A DNA stretch of 6,193 bases, taken from the IMG/VR virus record IMGVR_UViG_2693429700_000016; one strand, given 5' to 3'. Positions within the stretch are counted from its first letter, which is position 1, and each line of letters starts with the position of its first letter. Below the pieces are notes generated by a model. That model saw only the letters and a list, made by a program, of their open reading frames with translations, ran no database searches and was not told the DNA's origin. The position numbers and the translations under genes were made by a program. The DNA comes from a virus (taxonomy: Duplodnaviria; Heunggongvirae; Uroviricota; Caudoviricetes). This document shows, piece by piece, positions 1 to 6,193 of this stretch.

Positions 1-79
1 CATATTCATCCTGACTTTCCAGAACCATACGAATCGCCCGCTGACGGACTTCGGGGGAAAAACGAGTATTTTTAGTCAT
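1..79 (-). CDS. IS3-family transposase OrfA, N-terminal fragment (continues past window edge)
   Basis: Own translation of minus strand from ATG 79-77 gives MTKNTRFSPEVRQRAIRMVLESQDEY with no stop to position 1. Candidate ribosome-binding site AGAGG upstream (revcomp of ~87-91). Confidence 0.8.
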   Translation of the reverse strand, partial: MTKNTRFSPEVRQRAIRMVLESQDEY

Positions 80-108
80 CCTGTTTACCTCTTTCTCAGG
101 GAGTTTAG

Positions 109-133
109 TCTCCAGGATTTCCGGGGCGGTTCA
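109..133 (-). repeat. IS terminal inverted repeat (IRL-like)
   Basis: TGAACCGCCCCGG..TCCTGGAGA shares a 13-nt identical terminus and the TCCTGGAGA block with the opposite-polarity copy at 6070-6094. Confidence 0.75.
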
Positions 134-1587: not shown

Positions 1588-1932
1588 ATGCGTGATATGT
1601 ATGAAGTATTGGACCGCTGGGGAGCATGGGCTGCAGCAGACAACAGTGGTGTGGACTGGCAGCCGGTAGCAGCAGGCTTCAAGGGGCTTTTACCTCATGG
1701 CAAAAAGTCACGGATTCAGTGTGATGATGACGAAGGCATTATGATAGACAGTTGTGTGGCTCGGTTGAGAAGGTATAAACCAGAGGAATATGAGCTCATC
1801 ATAGCCCACTTTGTTATTGGTATCTCATTACGCACTATTGCCAAAAAGAGAAGGTGCTCTGATGGCACTATTAGGAAGGAGTTGCAAACCGCAATCGGTT
1901 TTATAGAGGGGGTTGTAAGTATACTTGTGTAA
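1588..1932 (+). CDS. Q: Late-gene antitermination protein Q (short quuD-like family)
   Basis: N-terminus MRDMYEVLDRWGAWAA...AAGFKGLL...CDDDEG...CSDG resembles DLP12 QuuD-type Q proteins from memory. GGAG at 1577-1580 precedes ATG 1588; the ORF track's TTG at 1573 is less likely. Stop TAA 1930-1932. Confidence 0.8.
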   Translation: MRDMYEVLDRWGAWAAADNSGVDWQPVAAGFKGLLPHGKKSRIQCDDDEGIMIDSCVARLRRYKPEEYELIIAHFVIGISLRTIAKKRRCSDGTIRKELQTAIGFIEGVVSILV

Positions 1933-1940
1933 AATAATAA

Positions 1941-1959
1941 AAGGCGGTAGTACCGCCTT
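1941..1959. terminator. Perfect hairpin (AAGGCGGTA / TACCGCCTT) between convergent Q and cassette; likely intrinsic terminator for the minus-strand cassette
   Basis: Inverted repeat 1941-1949 / 1951-1959. On the minus strand it is followed by a U-rich tract (revcomp of 1929-1940 = TTTTATTATTTT). The plus-strand downstream tract is not U-rich. Overlaps the stop codon (1958-1960) of the last cassette gene. Confidence 0.55.
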
Positions 1960-2572
1960 AATGATCGAATCGTTGTATGTTTTCATGGAATCTACAAAAG
2001 TGAATAGATATTTTGAATAGTAAAATGTAGAAACCAACTTGACTTAAAGTTATGGCTTTGCATTTATCATTCAAGAGTTTTTGTAATTCTTCCGTTGGTA
2101 ATTGGTATACATCATCAAGAAAAACGATGCATTCTTCTAAGTTGTCTGATTCAGGAAGATAAAAAATATTAGTAATTAACTGCTTCCTTATAGCATCAAT
2201 TTTGCTATCTATTGAAGTCTTAGAAACTCCGTTGGAGAGAAGAATAGCTTCGAACTTAGATAAACTTACTAACGGAGCAAAGACTGCACGCATTGGCACA
2301 TCACGATTATTACTTGTATCTATATCGCAACTGTTGCTTAATATAATTCCTCGTGTTTTTTTAGTCCCTTTAATTGAATATACTGTAAGCTCCTTAAATA
2401 TATCTCCCTGAAGTGCAGCATTTTTCAGATCATCATGATAATTGGTAAGGTAGTAGTTAGTGTTTTCAGGGAAATCTCTAAGTGCATTTATTAGCCCTTC
2501 TTTTTGAGGAGCTGTTAAATAATATGGGATTTGATCTTTGAATTTCTCGATATCAAAAATGTTATTACTCAT
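1958..2572 (-). CDS. Cassette gene C: hypothetical protein (~204 aa), no recognisable motif
   Basis: Long ORF in strongly AT-rich DNA. ATG at 2572-2570 (alternative GTG at 2575-2573) lies directly after the TAA stop (2578-2576) of gene B, suggesting translational coupling. Ends at the terminator hairpin. Confidence 0.7.
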   Translation of the reverse strand: MSNNIFDIEKFKDQIPYYLTAPQKEGLINALRDFPENTNYYLTNYHDDLKNAALQGDIFKELTVYSIKGTKKTRGIILSNSCDIDTSNNRDVPMRAVFAPLVSLSKFEAILLSNGVSKTSIDSKIDAIRKQLITNIFYLPESDNLEECIVFLDDVYQLPTEELQKLLNDKCKAITLSQVGFYILLFKISIHFCRFHENIQRFDH

Positions 2573-2575
2573 CAC

Positions 2576-2920
2576 TTAATCCAAGTATAAATCCCACAGT
2601 GAAGCATGAACGACTTTATTTATTTCACTGCCTAAAGACACCTGGTTTGTTGATAATTTTTCATAAAAGTTTGTCATCGAGACTGCAAGTCTTTGATCAA
2701 CTGAGATTGTGCTCCCTGCTTTATATGTTTGTGTGATGGAATGAACTGAATCGGTAGTTGAAGACTTATACTCCAAAGCGTGATTTTTGACGATTAAACT
2801 TTGTTGAGGACCATGCTGTTGATTTTGGGCAATGTCTGTTAATGCTGTTATATGCAGACCATATAAAACCAAAGTTAATACTTGAAGTTGAGCTCGATAA
2901 ACATGATGAGACGGATACAT
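2576..2920 (-). CDS. Cassette gene B: small hypothetical protein (114 aa) with hydrophobic N-proximal segment
   Basis: ATG at 2920-2918 preceded on the minus strand by GGTGGT about 7 nt upstream (revcomp of 2921-2935 = AAATGGTGGTATGAT). Residues ~10-30 (AQLQVLTLVLYGLHITALTDIA) are hydrophobic. Stop abuts the start of gene C. Confidence 0.6.
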   Translation of the reverse strand: MYPSHHVYRAQLQVLTLVLYGLHITALTDIAQNQQHGPQQSLIVKNHALEYKSSTTDSVHSITQTYKAGSTISVDQRLAVSMTNFYEKLSTNQVSLGSEINKVVHASLWDLYLD

Positions 2921-2935
2921 ATCATACCACCATTT

Positions 2936-3685
2936 CTATTTGTAGGATGGTTCTAGTTCTTGAATTGTTGACTCTTTAAGGCAACTAAAGAAAGCTAATT
3001 TATTACAGGAGTGAAGATCATCAAGAATTTTTTTGGGTTCGTTTTTAAACTTATCTATTTCATCAGTATTAGTGATTTGCCTAATACTGTCTATGTCTAG
3101 GATTAGTCCTTTTTTATTAAATTCTCCATTATCTGACATGACTAAAGCATGAGATAATATTTGAATTATATTTAGAAATGCGCCTTCATTTTTATCGATT
3201 CTGATATTGATCGGATAATTAGACATAGACTCGCCAGCCATATTTAAGCTGACGTTTAGCTTATCAAATAAATTAGAATCGTCTTCTTTTGGGAAAAAAT
3301 CTACATACTTTAATGAGTAGCGGATGATGTTGTCATTTAAATTTAATTTGTTAAGCTCATTTAATACATGAATGATTTTTTCTCTAAAATGACTCCACCC
3401 TTGATATTTGGTGCTGGTGGATACAACAACACCATGGTCACTTAGTCCAATATAGTACCCTTCGATTTCGAGGCGACTGACAACTGCGTAATGTAATTGT
3501 TCATCTCCCTCACGAACATTTTTAGGTATTTGACTGGGTGGTAAACTAATTACTGGTTTTGTACAACCTAGAGCGTGAAAAAGAAACCCTGGAACTATTT
3601 CCGATATTTGTGTTTCTTTAGAAAAACGCATTTCGAAAGCAGCTTCGATTACTGGTTGTTTTGATAGAGATGTTGGAATGAGCAT
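2936..3685 (-). CDS. Cassette gene A: hypothetical protein (249 aa); N-terminal P-V-I-E-A-A-F-E-M-R-F motif resembles TIGR04255-type proteins of unknown function (recognition from memory, unverified)
   Basis: 750-nt ORF, AT-rich codon usage, ATG at 3685-3683, stop TAG 2938-2936 is 15 nt upstream of gene B start. The motif PVIEAAFEMRF plus later IIRYSLKYVDFF and GLILDIDSI blocks fit my memory of that family. Confidence 0.7.
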   Translation of the reverse strand: MLIPTSLSKQPVIEAAFEMRFSKETQISEIVPGFLFHALGCTKPVISLPPSQIPKNVREGDEQLHYAVVSRLEIEGYYIGLSDHGVVVSTSTKYQGWSHFREKIIHVLNELNKLNLNDNIIRYSLKYVDFFPKEDDSNLFDKLNVSLNMAGESMSNYPINIRIDKNEGAFLNIIQILSHALVMSDNGEFNKKGLILDIDSIRQITNTDEIDKFKNEPKKILDDLHSCNKLAFFSCLKESTIQELEPSYK

Positions 3686-3912
3686 TTAAAACCCATAGTA
3701 TGTTTTATGAGCTGATTGGATTTTGAGCATAGCTACCGCACGAATCTTCGAGGAAGATCCAAACATGTGCCTAATGTCGCATCATGCTCAAGGCGGCATA
3801 AATTTTGTTTACTGAGTATAAGATTAACAACCATTAACTTCCATCAAAAATGCTAACGCGTACGCAAAAACTATTGTATCGTGTTAAGAGTGGTCACTTC
3901 GCCACACAGCTT
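3686..3912. promoter_or_regulatory. Divergent control region: expected site of the cassette promoter (minus) and possibly the phage late promoter/qut (plus); exact elements not resolved
   Basis: Non-coding, compositionally intermediate stretch between the cassette start and the lysis leader. Only weak sigma70-like hexamers found by eye, e.g. TTAACA 3824-3829 with AAAAAT 3846-3851. Positional inference only. Confidence 0.3.
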
Positions 3913-3942
3913 AAACCCGCCGTCGAGCGGGTTTGTCGTTTC
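3913..3942 (+). terminator. Hairpin AAACCCGC-CGTCGA-GCGGGTTT followed by GTCGTTTCT: candidate tR'-like intrinsic terminator or late-leader structure upstream of S
   Basis: 8-bp GC-rich stem (3913-3920 / 3927-3934) with 6-nt loop and U-rich tail on the plus strand. Flanking GGTCACTTCG (3892-3901) recalls the lambda pR'-tR' leader from memory. Confidence 0.4.
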
Positions 3943-4085
3943 TGGACCCGGCTATTTGTTGAGCCTGGTCTATACCGCAGTTATCCATTGGCTCGGCCTC
4001 TTTTACGTTTCCGCTTCTGATTTGCGGTACATGATGTTCCCTCAATTTGCACCTCCTGTATTGGCGAGGTGAGAGATAACTACAA

Positions 4086-4412
4086 ATGCCTCATAACCCA
4101 AATACCTGGCTGGAGTTGGTCCAGAGCTGGTGGCGTGGAGACACACCGCTGGGCGCAGTGATTATGTCGATTGTTATGGCTGGTTTACGTATTGCCTATT
4201 TTGGCGGTGGTGGCGGCTGGAAGCGAAAAACACTCGAAATTCTACTCTGTGGTGCTCTGACGCTGACTTTTGCATCCGCTCTTGAGTATGTCGGATGGCC
4301 TAAATCACTATCTGTTGCCATTGGTGGTGGGGTGGGGCTGATCGGTGTCGATGCTATTCGTGGGGCTGCAATGCGAGTAATCGGTAACAAATTTGGTGGC
4401 TCTAAGGAGTAA
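4086..4412 (+). CDS. S: Holin (class I, lambda S-like three-TMD architecture, but a divergent allele)
   Basis: 108 aa. Three hydrophobic segments (about residues 22-39, 49-69, 75-91). Shares the LR..Y.GG...K and IG.D.I pattern with lambda S from memory. Immediately upstream of R; stop TAA 4410-4412. Confidence 0.8.
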   Translation: MPHNPNTWLELVQSWWRGDTPLGAVIMSIVMAGLRIAYFGGGGGWKRKTLEILLCGALTLTFASALEYVGWPKSLSVAIGGGVGLIGVDAIRGAAMRVIGNKFGGSKE

Positions 4413-4415
4413 TTT

Positions 4416-4892
4416 ATGCAGGTACTAAATTCCCAGCGTAAAGCTTTCCTCGATATGGTGGCTTGGTCAGAAGGAACGGATAACGGACGACAACCGACAC
4501 GTAACCACGGTTATGACGTTATTGTTGGTGGTGAACTCTTCACTGATTACTCCGATCACCCTCGCAAACTTGTCACGCTAAACCCGAAACTCAAGTCAAC
4601 AGCCGCCGGACGTTACCAGCTTCTTTCACGCTGGTGGGATGCTTACCGTAAACAGCTTGGCCTGAAAGATTTTTCTCCAGAAAGCCAGGACGCTGTAGCT
4701 CTGCAGCAGATTAAAGAGTGTGGCGCTTTACCGATGATTGATCGCGGTGATATTCGTCAGGCAATTGACCGTTGCAGCAATATCTGGGCTTCACTGCCGG
4801 GTGCTGGTTATGGTCAGTTCGAGCATAAGGCTGACAGCCTGATTGCAAAATTCAAAGAAGCAGGCGGAACGGTCAGAGAGATTGAGGTATGA
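4416..4892 (+). CDS. R: Endolysin R (lambda-type lytic transglycosylase)
   Basis: 158 aa. Sequence [81 protein letters not shown]... is near-identical to lambda R as I remember it. AAGGAG at 4404-4409. Confidence 0.95.
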
Positions 4893-5350
4893 GCAGAGTA
4901 ACCGCGATTATCTCCGCTCTGGTTATCTGCATCATCGTCTGCCTGTCATGGGCTGTTAATCATTACCGCGATAACGCCATTACCTACAAAGCCCAGCGCG
5001 ACAAAAATGCCAGAGAACTGAAGCTGGCGAACTCGACAATTACTGACATGCAGGTGCGCCAGCGTGATGTTGCTGCGCTCGATGCAAAATACACGAAGGA
5101 GTTAGCTGATGCGAAAGCTGAAAATGATGCTCTGCGTGATGATGTTGCCGCTGGTCGTCGTCGGTTGCACATCAAAGCAGTCTGTCAGTCAGTGCGTGAA
5201 GCCACCACCGCCTCCGGCGTGGATAATGCAGCCTCCCCCCGACTGGCAGACACCGCTGAACGGGATTATTTCACCCTCAGAGAGAGGCTGATCACTATGC
5301 AAAAACAACTGGAAGGAACCCAGAAGTATATTAATGAGCAGTGCAGATAG
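4889..5350 (+). CDS. Rz: Spanin inner-membrane subunit Rz (i-spanin)
   Basis: 153 aa. ATGA start/stop overlap with R. N-terminal TM segment ([16 protein letters not shown]) then coiled-coil-like region; near-identical to lambda Rz from memory. Confidence 0.95.
5109..5291 (+). CDS. Rz1: Spanin outer-membrane lipoprotein Rz1 (o-spanin), embedded in the +1 frame of Rz
   Basis: 60 aa. Lipobox VVGC and proline-rich [13 protein letters not shown]. Fully nested inside Rz as in lambda. Confidence 0.9.
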
Positions 5351-5381
5351 AGCTGCCCATATCGATGGGCAACTCATGCAA

Positions 5382-5675
5382 TTATTGTGAGCAATACACA
5401 CGCGCTTCCAGCGGAGTATAAATGCCTAAAGTAATAAAACCGAGCAATCCATTTACGAATGTTTGCTGGGTTTCTGTTTTAACAACATTTTCTGCGCCGC
5501 CACAAATTTTGGCTGCATCAACAGTTTTCTCCTGTCCAATTCCCGAAACGAAGAAATGATGGGTGATGGTTTCCTTTGGTGTTACTGCTGTCGGTTTGTT
5601 TCCAACAGTAAACGTCTGTTGAGCACATCCTGTAATAAGCATTGCCAGAGCGGCAGAAAACAACATTTTTTTCAT
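5382..5675 (-). CDS. bor: Bor-family outer-membrane lipoprotein (lambda bor-like)
   Basis: Minus-strand ORF; start chosen at internal ATG 5675-5673 (MKKMLFSAALAMLITGCAQQTFTV...) with AGGA about 8 nt upstream. Lipobox ITGC. Near-identical to lambda Bor from memory. The ORF-track N-terminal extension (5676-5723) is probably not translated. Confidence 0.9.
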   Translation of the reverse strand: MKKMLFSAALAMLITGCAQQTFTVGNKPTAVTPKETITHHFFVSGIGQEKTVDAAKICGGAENVVKTETQQTFVNGLLGFITLGIYTPLEARVYCSQ

Positions 5676-5858
5676 CTTATTATCCTGCATTGTTAAAAAC
5701 GGCAGAATCCTATGTGACAACAATTAAACGATAGTTAAATGGATTGATGAAATTTAAAACTATATAGGTGTACGGTCAGACTATTGGAGGTAGTCAGGAT
5801 TTGAATGTCAGTCTGTTGTCGGCATTCTGGCAATGCAATTTGGATAAAGCGGGGATTA

Positions 5859-5978
5859 AAAAGATAGAGGCGAGCCGGTCAGGTAGAAATGAATCAGGCT
5901 CAAAGTGAAGCGGAAAAGGTCTGTGGCACAAACTGATACAGCCATAATTACAGCCTGATGATTTGTGGAATGAAACAT
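5859..5978 (-). CDS. Small ORF (40 aa, hydrophobic) with strong ribosome-binding site; hypothetical
   Basis: Minus-strand ATG at 5978-5976 preceded by AAGGAGGT with a 5-nt spacer (revcomp of 5979-5995 = AATTAAGGAGGTTCAAC). My translation: MFHSTNHQAVIMAVSVCATDLFRFTLSLIHFYLTGSPLSF, stop at 5859-5861. Below the ORF-track length cutoff. Confidence 0.3.
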
Positions 5979-6069
5979 GTTGAACCTCCTTAATTAATGT
6001 TATTCGAGTGAGGAAGGCATTCTGTCCTTCTATAGTGTCCAGTAAATCAAACAGGAAACTTGTCCAACG

Positions 6070-6094
6070 TGAACCGCCCCGGGTTTCCTGGAGA
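6070..6094 (+). repeat. IS terminal inverted repeat (IRR-like)
   Basis: TGAACCGCCCCGGGTTTCCTGGAGA; partner of 109-133. Confidence 0.75.
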
Positions 6095-6111
6095 GTGTTT
6101 TATCTGTGAAC

Positions 6112-6193
6112 TCAGGCTGCCAGATCATCGTTTCCGATGGAAGCATAATAAGCTTTTTCTGCTTCTGCCGGAGGAGTATGGCCCAGCCTTCCC
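6112..6193 (-). CDS. IS3-family transposase OrfB, C-terminal fragment (partial)
   Basis: Minus-strand frame gives ...GRLGHTPPAEAEKAYYASIGNDDLAA then stop at 6114-6112, about 42 nt inside the IS terminus. The TPPAEAEKAYY tail looks like IS3-family integrase C-termini. Frame choice is my judgement. Confidence 0.5.
   Translation of the reverse strand, partial: GRLGHTPPAEAEKAYYASIGNDDLAA

Follow-up and report, generated by a model that had tools for sequence, protein, structure and literature searches.

An exchangeable three-gene cassette between the antiterminator Q and the lysis genes of a lambdoid prophage

The 6,193 nucleotides (nt) analysed here, taken from the viral record IMGVR_UViG_2693429700_000016 and referred to over their whole length as the window, come from an SfII/e14-like lambdoid prophage, of which they form the region for late control and lysis. 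Between the gene for the antiterminator Q (1588–1932, plus strand; Q21-type family by PF06530, E = 1.4e-44, and by the RefSeq annotation of an identical locus) and the late leader and lysis genes lies a moron-type accessory cassette (1924–3845) that occupies a hypervariable slot. Its cargo is a self-contained operon on the minus strand, consisting of a leader, three genes that we call A, B and C, as we do their proteins, and a terminator. Gene A (2936–3685) encodes 249 amino acids (aa) and belongs to TIGR04255, gene B (2576–2920) encodes 114 aa, and gene C (1958–2575) encodes 205 aa from a GTG start codon, or 204 aa from the ATG at 2572; the spacing is 15 nt between A and B and 0–3 nt between B and C. 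The locus as a whole is very probably best explained as a swappable cassette of moron type, with its own leader, A-B-C genes and terminator, placed antisense to Q. Such an island is ordinary in kind, a moron cassette in an interval known to be prone to morons, and its interest lies in the uncharacterised three-gene module, which has no entry in the literature or in defence databases, and in the slot as a hotspot of defence type.

The operon ends in an intrinsic terminator (1931–1959, minus strand), placed by a terminator scan, RNA folding and the positions of its motifs. Its stem of 8 base pairs (bp), AAGGCGGU/ACCGCCUU (1959–1941), encloses a 3-nt loop, and UUUAUUAUUUU (1940–1931) comes next on the minus strand, as in a canonical intrinsic terminator. 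The hairpin folds at −11.7 kcal/mol (z = −4.3), a stability reached by 0 of 200 shuffles. The 25 nt that separate the convergent stop codons of Q and C are taken up by this terminator, which therefore belongs to the cargo operon and not to an ancestral phage site.

At the opposite end, a cassette-specific 5′ leader and promoter region of 160 nt (3686–3845, minus strand) extends from the start of A to the point where homology with other alleles resumes. The region is free of tandem or direct repeats and holds a weak promoter candidate, TGGAAG-17-TATACT, seen by eye only. It also carries a conserved element (3722–3750, minus strand) in which an 8-bp stem-loop, GGAUCUUC-CUC-GAAGAUUC (3750–3732), is directly followed by an invariant CGTGCGGTAGC (3732–3722). 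Across seven distinct enterobacterial leaders, 89% of the cells in the stem alignment were paired and six of the eight pairs showed compensatory changes; slid registers were at most 50% paired, and one shuffle in 500 equalled the observed value. The E. coli, Klebsiella and Pantoea types each have a different stem sequence, with the pairing retained. Resting on seven sequences from some four lineages, this comparison is suggestive of a conserved stem-loop, which together with CGTGCGGTAGC may serve as a cis-regulatory RNA or a structured operator.

We found no universal leader motif across all 85 loci, conservation being confined to subfamilies, and we therefore limit the stem-loop claim to the enterobacterial subfamily. 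Other A-B-C subfamilies have strongly conserved non-coding leaders of their own, situated 60–150 nt upstream of A (loci L046, L078, L082 and L092–L096, Rhodobacterales; also L054, L083, L068, L059, L041 and L071). Examples are TATTGACTC...GAGTCCTGCGCGCTTG...GATTCGTGCGCGGGTTACACT...GATTCGACGTGGAGG in one case and a CCCCGTGTTACTTGAACGGGG hairpin followed by GTCTGATAAC in another. The leaders from Symbiobacter and Allochromatium are near-identical despite their distant hosts.

The slot, its alternative cargos and the distribution of the module

Thirteen alleles, the window included, share the flanks of the slot, which is filled in every one of them with differing cargo; each related prophage examined has at least one cargo gene antisense to Q. 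SfII carries two genes that match the PADLOC candidates PDC-M53A/B, cdtI and 2013C-4225 carry two hypothetical genes each, and PhiR49_1 carries an OmpD porin. In EC20017429 and 50EVA the slot holds a nucleoid-associated (NA37) protein with a partner, in 504237 a hypothetical protein of 427 aa, and in FDAARGOS_1262 one of 248 aa. The prophage of enterotoxigenic E. coli (ETEC) H10407 (L008) has a KAP nucleoside triphosphatase (NTPase) matching PDC-S20 and PifA-like models, and that of E. coli R6 (L148) has, by annotation, a HEPN-like nuclease with a DUF262 protein, plus a cytosine methyltransferase on the plus strand. Also by annotation, strain 779 (L150) encodes a caspase together with a TIR protein, and NA3664 (L151) a lone TIR protein. 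Most prophages with both flanks lack the cassette of the window.

Such a range of occupants between Q and the late leader is the mark of a hotspot whose contents are exchanged through conserved flanks, and not of insertion at a target site. Several of the cargos carry domains typical of immune systems, so that candidate defence genes could be mined at little cost from the Q-to-leader slot of SfII/e14-like prophages. Our literature searches returned general or tangential papers and no description of the Q-lysis slot as a hotspot, which does not prove that none exists.

The cassette resembles morons already described from the same interval. The stx genes of Stx phages are located in the Q-lysis interval (PMC6266700), and OmpD of PhiR49_1 is encoded in the very slot of our cassette. 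The Q-lysis morons, namely stx and the nmpC/ompD porin genes of DLP12 and PhiR49_1, are likewise present, absent or replaced among relatives, and they share with this cassette a distinct base composition and a terminator of their own. The lambda morons bor and lom are found at other positions. Two differences set the present cargo apart: it is a three-gene module, whereas the Q-lysis morons named above encode a toxin or a porin, and it lies antisense and upstream of the late leader and is probably independent of Q, whereas stx shares the strand of the late genes, downstream of pR′, and depends on Q.

A second likeness is to the defence hotspots of P2 prophages and P4 satellites (bioRxiv 10.1101/2021.01.21.427644), which also have a fixed position between conserved phage genes, varied cargo of immune type and exchange through the flanks. 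The slot described here differs from them in phage family and in position (Q/late leader in SfII/e14-like lambdoids), and most of its occupants are only candidate systems.

The cassette is present in 92 of 5,426 E. coli genomes, always at 99% identity or more and always in one Q/S context, and it had no match among 50,697 phage records. In prophages of Klebsiella (A 65% and C 63% identical) and Yersinia (A 46%, C 50%), this same Q-lysis slot is filled by diverged orthologues. The order A-B-C and the sizes of the proteins (about 250, 115 and 205 aa) are kept in Klebsiella, Yersinia, Pantoea, Symbiobacter, Allochromatium and Magnetomoraceae. In Pantoea the module is carried by an element resembling an integrative and conjugative element (ICE) or a plasmid, and a second prophage slot in Klebsiella, in the nin region, holds it as well; in Ca. 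Symbiobacter it adjoins group II introns, ParE, BrnT and JetB, in Allochromatium it adjoins MazEF, and in a Magnetomoraceae genome it lies near a PIN toxin. Species-representative genomes yielded 144 relatives of C, which span Alpha-, Beta- and Gammaproteobacteria, Desulfobacterota, Myxococcota, Bacteroidota and Muiribacteriota. A stands directly upstream of C in 79 of the 80 loci that were fetched, and B is detectable in 68 of the 80.

The A, B and C proteins and what the module may do

Protein A matches TIGR04255 at 96.2 bits, against an NCBIfam cut-off of 30, over positions 2–251 of 252, and is predicted to form a double TBP-like alpha/beta fold with no assignable activity. B (phrog_5728) evolves fast; it begins with a hydrophobic stretch, and about 45 aa towards its C-terminus are conserved. 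A word-based homologue search with B returned only B itself, and its homologues were taken from the A-B-C loci. C is the most conserved component (48–63% identity), followed by A (32–65%) and then by B (23–31%, in an alignment from eight loci). Searches of PDB sequences with A, B and C gave nothing useful, and Pfam searches with 50 C homologues returned scattered noise only.

The predicted structure of C has a core of MazF/Kid/CcdB fold, in which an SH3-like barrel is recognised, with N- and C-terminal extensions; the models of A and C are both confident. The loop after the second beta strand of C is rich in invariant polar residues (S80, N81, C83, D84, N89 and R91). Across 87 C homologues C83, H192 and C194 are conserved and H197 is nearly invariant (HFCRFHE motif of the C-terminal helix). 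We speculate that C83, H192, C194 and H197 might form a metal site that ties the helix at the C-terminus to the putative active-site loop, in a model whose last 15 residues are of low confidence.

C differs from the type II toxins MazF, PemK, Kid and CcdB in its helical insertions and extensions, which go with a doubled length, and in having neither sequence nor profile similarity to them; neither Pfam nor profile comparison assigns it to the PF02452/MazF sequence family. The operon also has three genes where type II systems have two, and no recognisable MazE-like antitoxin is among them. Type III toxin-antitoxin systems (ToxIN, CptIN) have tandem RNA repeats directly upstream of the toxin gene, whereas this leader has none and two protein genes stand between it and C. 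Our search of the literature for a MazF-like three-gene system returned general or tangential papers only. The effector GajC of type II Gabija (Liu-DS1) is MazF-like and belongs to a validated defence system (PMC13069673), and it thereby gives a precedent for C as a defence effector. GajC, which C would resemble, is described as a helix-interrupted MazF-like domain, presumed to be a nuclease effector, in which the beta1-beta2 loop is essential (PMC13069673). GajC is paired with the UvrD-type helicase GajB, whereas the A-B-C cassette contains no helicase or ATPase.

The arrangement of the operon suggests when it might be expressed. Since the operon runs towards Q and has a terminator of its own to insulate it, its expression in the lysogen would be independent of late transcription; it would be transcribed from the repressed prophage, apart from the late transcription that Q drives. 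C would be a toxic and probably RNA-cleaving effector, which A, B or both might restrain or activate, and the outcome would be abortive infection of toxin-antitoxin type that guards the lysogen against other phages. We consider the chances about even that A-B-C is a toxin-antitoxin-like or abortive-infection module with C as its predicted effector, and somewhat poorer that it serves anti-phage defence specifically. Our most far-reaching proposal, made tentatively, is that A-B-C could be a new three-component immune or abortive-infection system that extends from Proteobacteria to Desulfobacterota and beyond, with a MazF-fold effector, a partner of double TBP-like fold and a structured leader (the stem-loop with CGUGCGGUAGC), and that the slot could be a rich and unexploited defence hotspot.

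Several results weigh against this reading. None of the three proteins matched Pfam, nor PADLOC v2 at E ≤ 0.1, and A gave no interpretable fold match. A profile of C compared with a genuine PemK protein gave an hhalign probability of 0.14, which is no signal, and the predicted fold is the sole ground on which C is called a putative toxin. We found no paper on TIGR04255, on the RefSeq accessions or on the PHROG ids. On the minus strand of the cargo leader a consensus scan detected no sigma-70 promoter, and it is by analogy that we infer the conserved leader to the right of the cassette to be a Q-dependent late promoter and terminator module of pR′-tR′ type, the general lambdoid layout behind that assignment being that of PMC6266700. 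In distant genomes the 133 immediate neighbours were mostly housekeeping genes, with five integrases and two resolvases, and there was no clear enrichment for defence islands among them, defence families appearing as single-member matches only. Guilt by association is therefore a strong argument for the prophage slots of enterobacteria only.

There is also a different account of the module, in which A-B-C would be a selfish addiction or toxin-antitoxin unit, or some other factor of lysogen fitness, that stabilises its carrier and has no role in phage defence. The MazF/CcdB fold predicted for C would suit such a unit, as would the ICE- or plasmid-like carrier in Pantoea, the lack of a PADLOC entry, and the appearance of the operon in many distant genomes as a small solitary island beside housekeeping, integrase or toxin-antitoxin genes. 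We nevertheless think this account rather unlikely. The Enterobacterales prophage slots alternatively hold genes with domains of immune type (TIR, caspase, KAP NTPase, HEPN and PDC-M53), and three strictly conserved components, with C about 50% identical across phyla, exceed the typical two-gene module; moreover, addiction and defence can coexist in one system, so that an addiction role would not exclude the immune function proposed above for A-B-C.

Cassette borders, AAGGCGG and base composition

Comparison with seven alleles that share the flanks (blastn) placed the ends of homology in conserved sequence on both sides of the cargo. On the left, homology ends at 1898 in SfII, at 1910 in L005 and L006 and at 1923 in L007, which together with the alignment of the junctions defines a mosaic junction zone (1898–1923) inside the 3′ end of Q; in three alleles with a different 3′ half of Q, it ends at 1634. 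On the right, homology resumes at 3836, 3845, 3846, 3854 or 3859, a second mosaic junction zone (3836–3859) according to the blastn start points and the alignment. The last 10–35 nt of Q vary among alleles that carry different cassettes, so the recombination boundary crosses the end of the Q coding sequence. Over the last ten or so Q codons (1898–1932), the nucleotides vary by cassette and a hydrophobic tail is kept, the tails of the alleles reading ...GFIEGVVSILV, ...GVIEGILLIIKPL, ...GFVDGCLAMLAYSMA and ...GFIDAVIYIIHG.

The two borders of the block share no repeat of 10 nt or more, in either direct or inverted orientation, and A, B and C match no recombinase or transposase family. Because the breakpoints lie in conserved flanks, the slot is occupied and no repeats bracket it, we infer that the cargo is swapped by homologous recombination within those flanks, at the 3′ end of Q on one side and in the late leader on the other, and not by site-specific insertion.

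The preliminary description of this DNA had proposed such an insertion, recent and site-specific, that split a hairpin containing AAGGCGG and left one copy of this motif at each border. The motif does lie near both ends of a block that is foreign in composition, and the positions given for it are correct: 1941–1947, in the left hairpin, and 3790–3796. A third copy (1953–1959) lies on the minus strand, and since it forms with the copy at 1941–1947 the two arms of one hairpin, the window contains two independent occurrences. The left copy and its inverted partner are thus the terminator of the cargo operon. The right copy stands within the cargo leader, 105 nt upstream of the start codon of A, and the resumption of homology at 3836–3859 puts it 40–55 nt inside cassette-specific sequence.

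Window-wide, AAGGCGG is expected 0.5 times, and three copies were reached in 3 of 200 shuffles. A fairer test asks whether any 7-mer of 1933–1960 is found again, on either strand, in 3700–3860, and when the right zone was dinucleotide-shuffled, at least one such match arose in 31% of the shuffles. The equivalent flanks of seven orthologous cassettes have 0–9 unrelated 7-mers in common, AAGGCGG being among none of them, and the motif is missing from the orthologous cassettes in Klebsiella, Yersinia and Pantoea. Given this rate of sharing by chance and the unrelated 7-mers of the orthologues, the repeat is no more than would be expected by chance. Other cassettes also differ after the Q stop: each of the four other prophages with an alignable Q 3′ end has its own sequence there, again without AAGGCGG, and in three of these four an evident GC-rich hairpin follows the stop codon (AAGCCCCTGTAGGGCTT in SfII, AAAAGCCACCGTAGTGGCTTTT in 504237 and GACGGCCATATTGGCCGTC in 50EVA).

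Nor did the empty site that a split hairpin implies come to light. Among 5,426 complete E. coli genomes, searched at megablast sensitivity, an artificial join of Q and hairpin to leader was covered to 80% or more in no place, so that no cassette-free allele was seen. With neither flanking repeats nor an integrase or transposase gene in the cassette, insertion into a split site is highly improbable. The proposed scar is the operon's own terminator stem together with one chance 7-mer in the leader.

In guanine-cytosine (GC) content, the block stands out clearly from its surroundings, at 0.35 against about 0.54 to the left and 0.48–0.50 to the right. The cargo operon itself (1958–3685) has a GC content of 0.333, compared with 0.531 for 134–1932 and 0.504 for 3859–5350, and at third codon positions it has 0.26–0.28, compared with 0.44–0.56 in the surrounding phage genes. 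A likelihood fit with two breakpoints beat a single segment by 81 log-likelihood (lnL) units, placing the breaks after 1687 (2-lnL interval 1676–1916) and after 3887 (3707–3917). The compositional island first described here is therefore real, but its edges are less sharp than had been reported and lie elsewhere. The fall had been put within a few nucleotides after the Q stop; it begins within Q at about 1690, so that the 3′ two-thirds of the gene are already low, and proceeds stepwise, from 0.58 at 1601–1700 through 0.42–0.43 at 1701–1932 to about 0.30 from 1950. Recovery had been set right of about 3700, yet GC content is still 0.33–0.36 at 3751–3900, first reaches 0.52 at 3851–3950, and recovers at about 3850–3890.

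Low GC content is a trait that accompanies the A-B-C module in nearly every host. The operon has a GC content of 0.30–0.41 in every host checked, and in six of seven other hosts it lies 15–22 GC points under its flanks, including Allochromatium, where the flanks are at 0.63; the exception is the Magnetomoraceae genome, which is itself AT-rich (flanks 0.37). An operon that is AT-rich in nearly all of its hosts provides no clock, and its composition cannot date its arrival. The reported recent horizontal acquisition thus holds in part: the cargo is foreign and mobile, and its E. coli copies form one lineage of at least 99% identity, but diverged orthologues stand in the same slot in Klebsiella and Yersinia prophages and the low GC content gives no date. 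AT-rich DNA in general is a plausible target of H-NS silencing, and the cargo operon (GC 0.33) is AT-rich relative to its host.

That the block is native phage DNA of drifted composition, or non-functional AT-rich filler, might be argued from the mosaic nature of lambdoid late regions and from the lower GC content of the 3′ part of Q itself (0.42), but this is hardly credible for three open reading frames (ORFs) that are kept as a unit from Enterobacterales to Desulfobacterota, also outside phages, that give confident structure models for A and C, and that are missing from most prophages sharing the flanks and from all 50,697 phage records.

The late leader and other features of the window

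To the right of the cassette lies a conserved late-region leader of about 90 nt (3846–3935, plus strand), common to all alleles (eight aligned) and to DLP12 of K-12. It carries GTTAAGAGTGGTTACTTCGCCACACAGC and ends in a terminator-like hairpin (3912–3935) followed by a T-run, as seen in a terminator scan and by folding. The late promoter could not be placed in 3846–3890 by inspection. A stretch of 76 nt (3859–3934) is 88% conserved in DLP12 of E. coli K-12 (NC_000913.3, 577199–577274) and is also present in thousands of E. coli genomes, in whose records the putative late promoter and terminator module is unannotated.

The lysis cassette spans 4086–5350 on the plus strand and comprises the genes for holin S (4086–4412; PF05106 and the RefSeq annotations of matching loci), endolysin R (4416–4892; RefSeq annotations of matching loci) and Rz (4889–5350), with an Rz1-like ORF from the ORF list embedded in the last (5109–5291). 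Upstream of Q, and also on the plus strand, are a DUF968/HNH gene (574–1569) and a truncated KilA-N gene (141–572), whose product has 143 aa compared with about 269 aa in intact relatives. Rfam, searched with the entire window at E ≤ 1, gave no match. Downstream of Rz, a Bor/Iss-like lipoprotein gene (5382–5675, minus strand; in strain 50EVA the gene at this position is annotated iss) forms a second antisense moron, in a region of lower GC content (5351–6068, 0.41).

Both ends of the window (1–133 and 6069–6193) are ends of one insertion sequence (IS) of the IS3 family, in the same orientation, and match the two ends of the IS at 2985–4295 of L005. The left end encodes, on the minus strand, the N-terminus of an IS3-family transposase, and it is this copy that truncates the KilA-N gene. 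With IS3-family ends on both sides, the 5.9-kb prophage fragment is bracketed by IS sequence and has the shape of a composite-transposon remnant.

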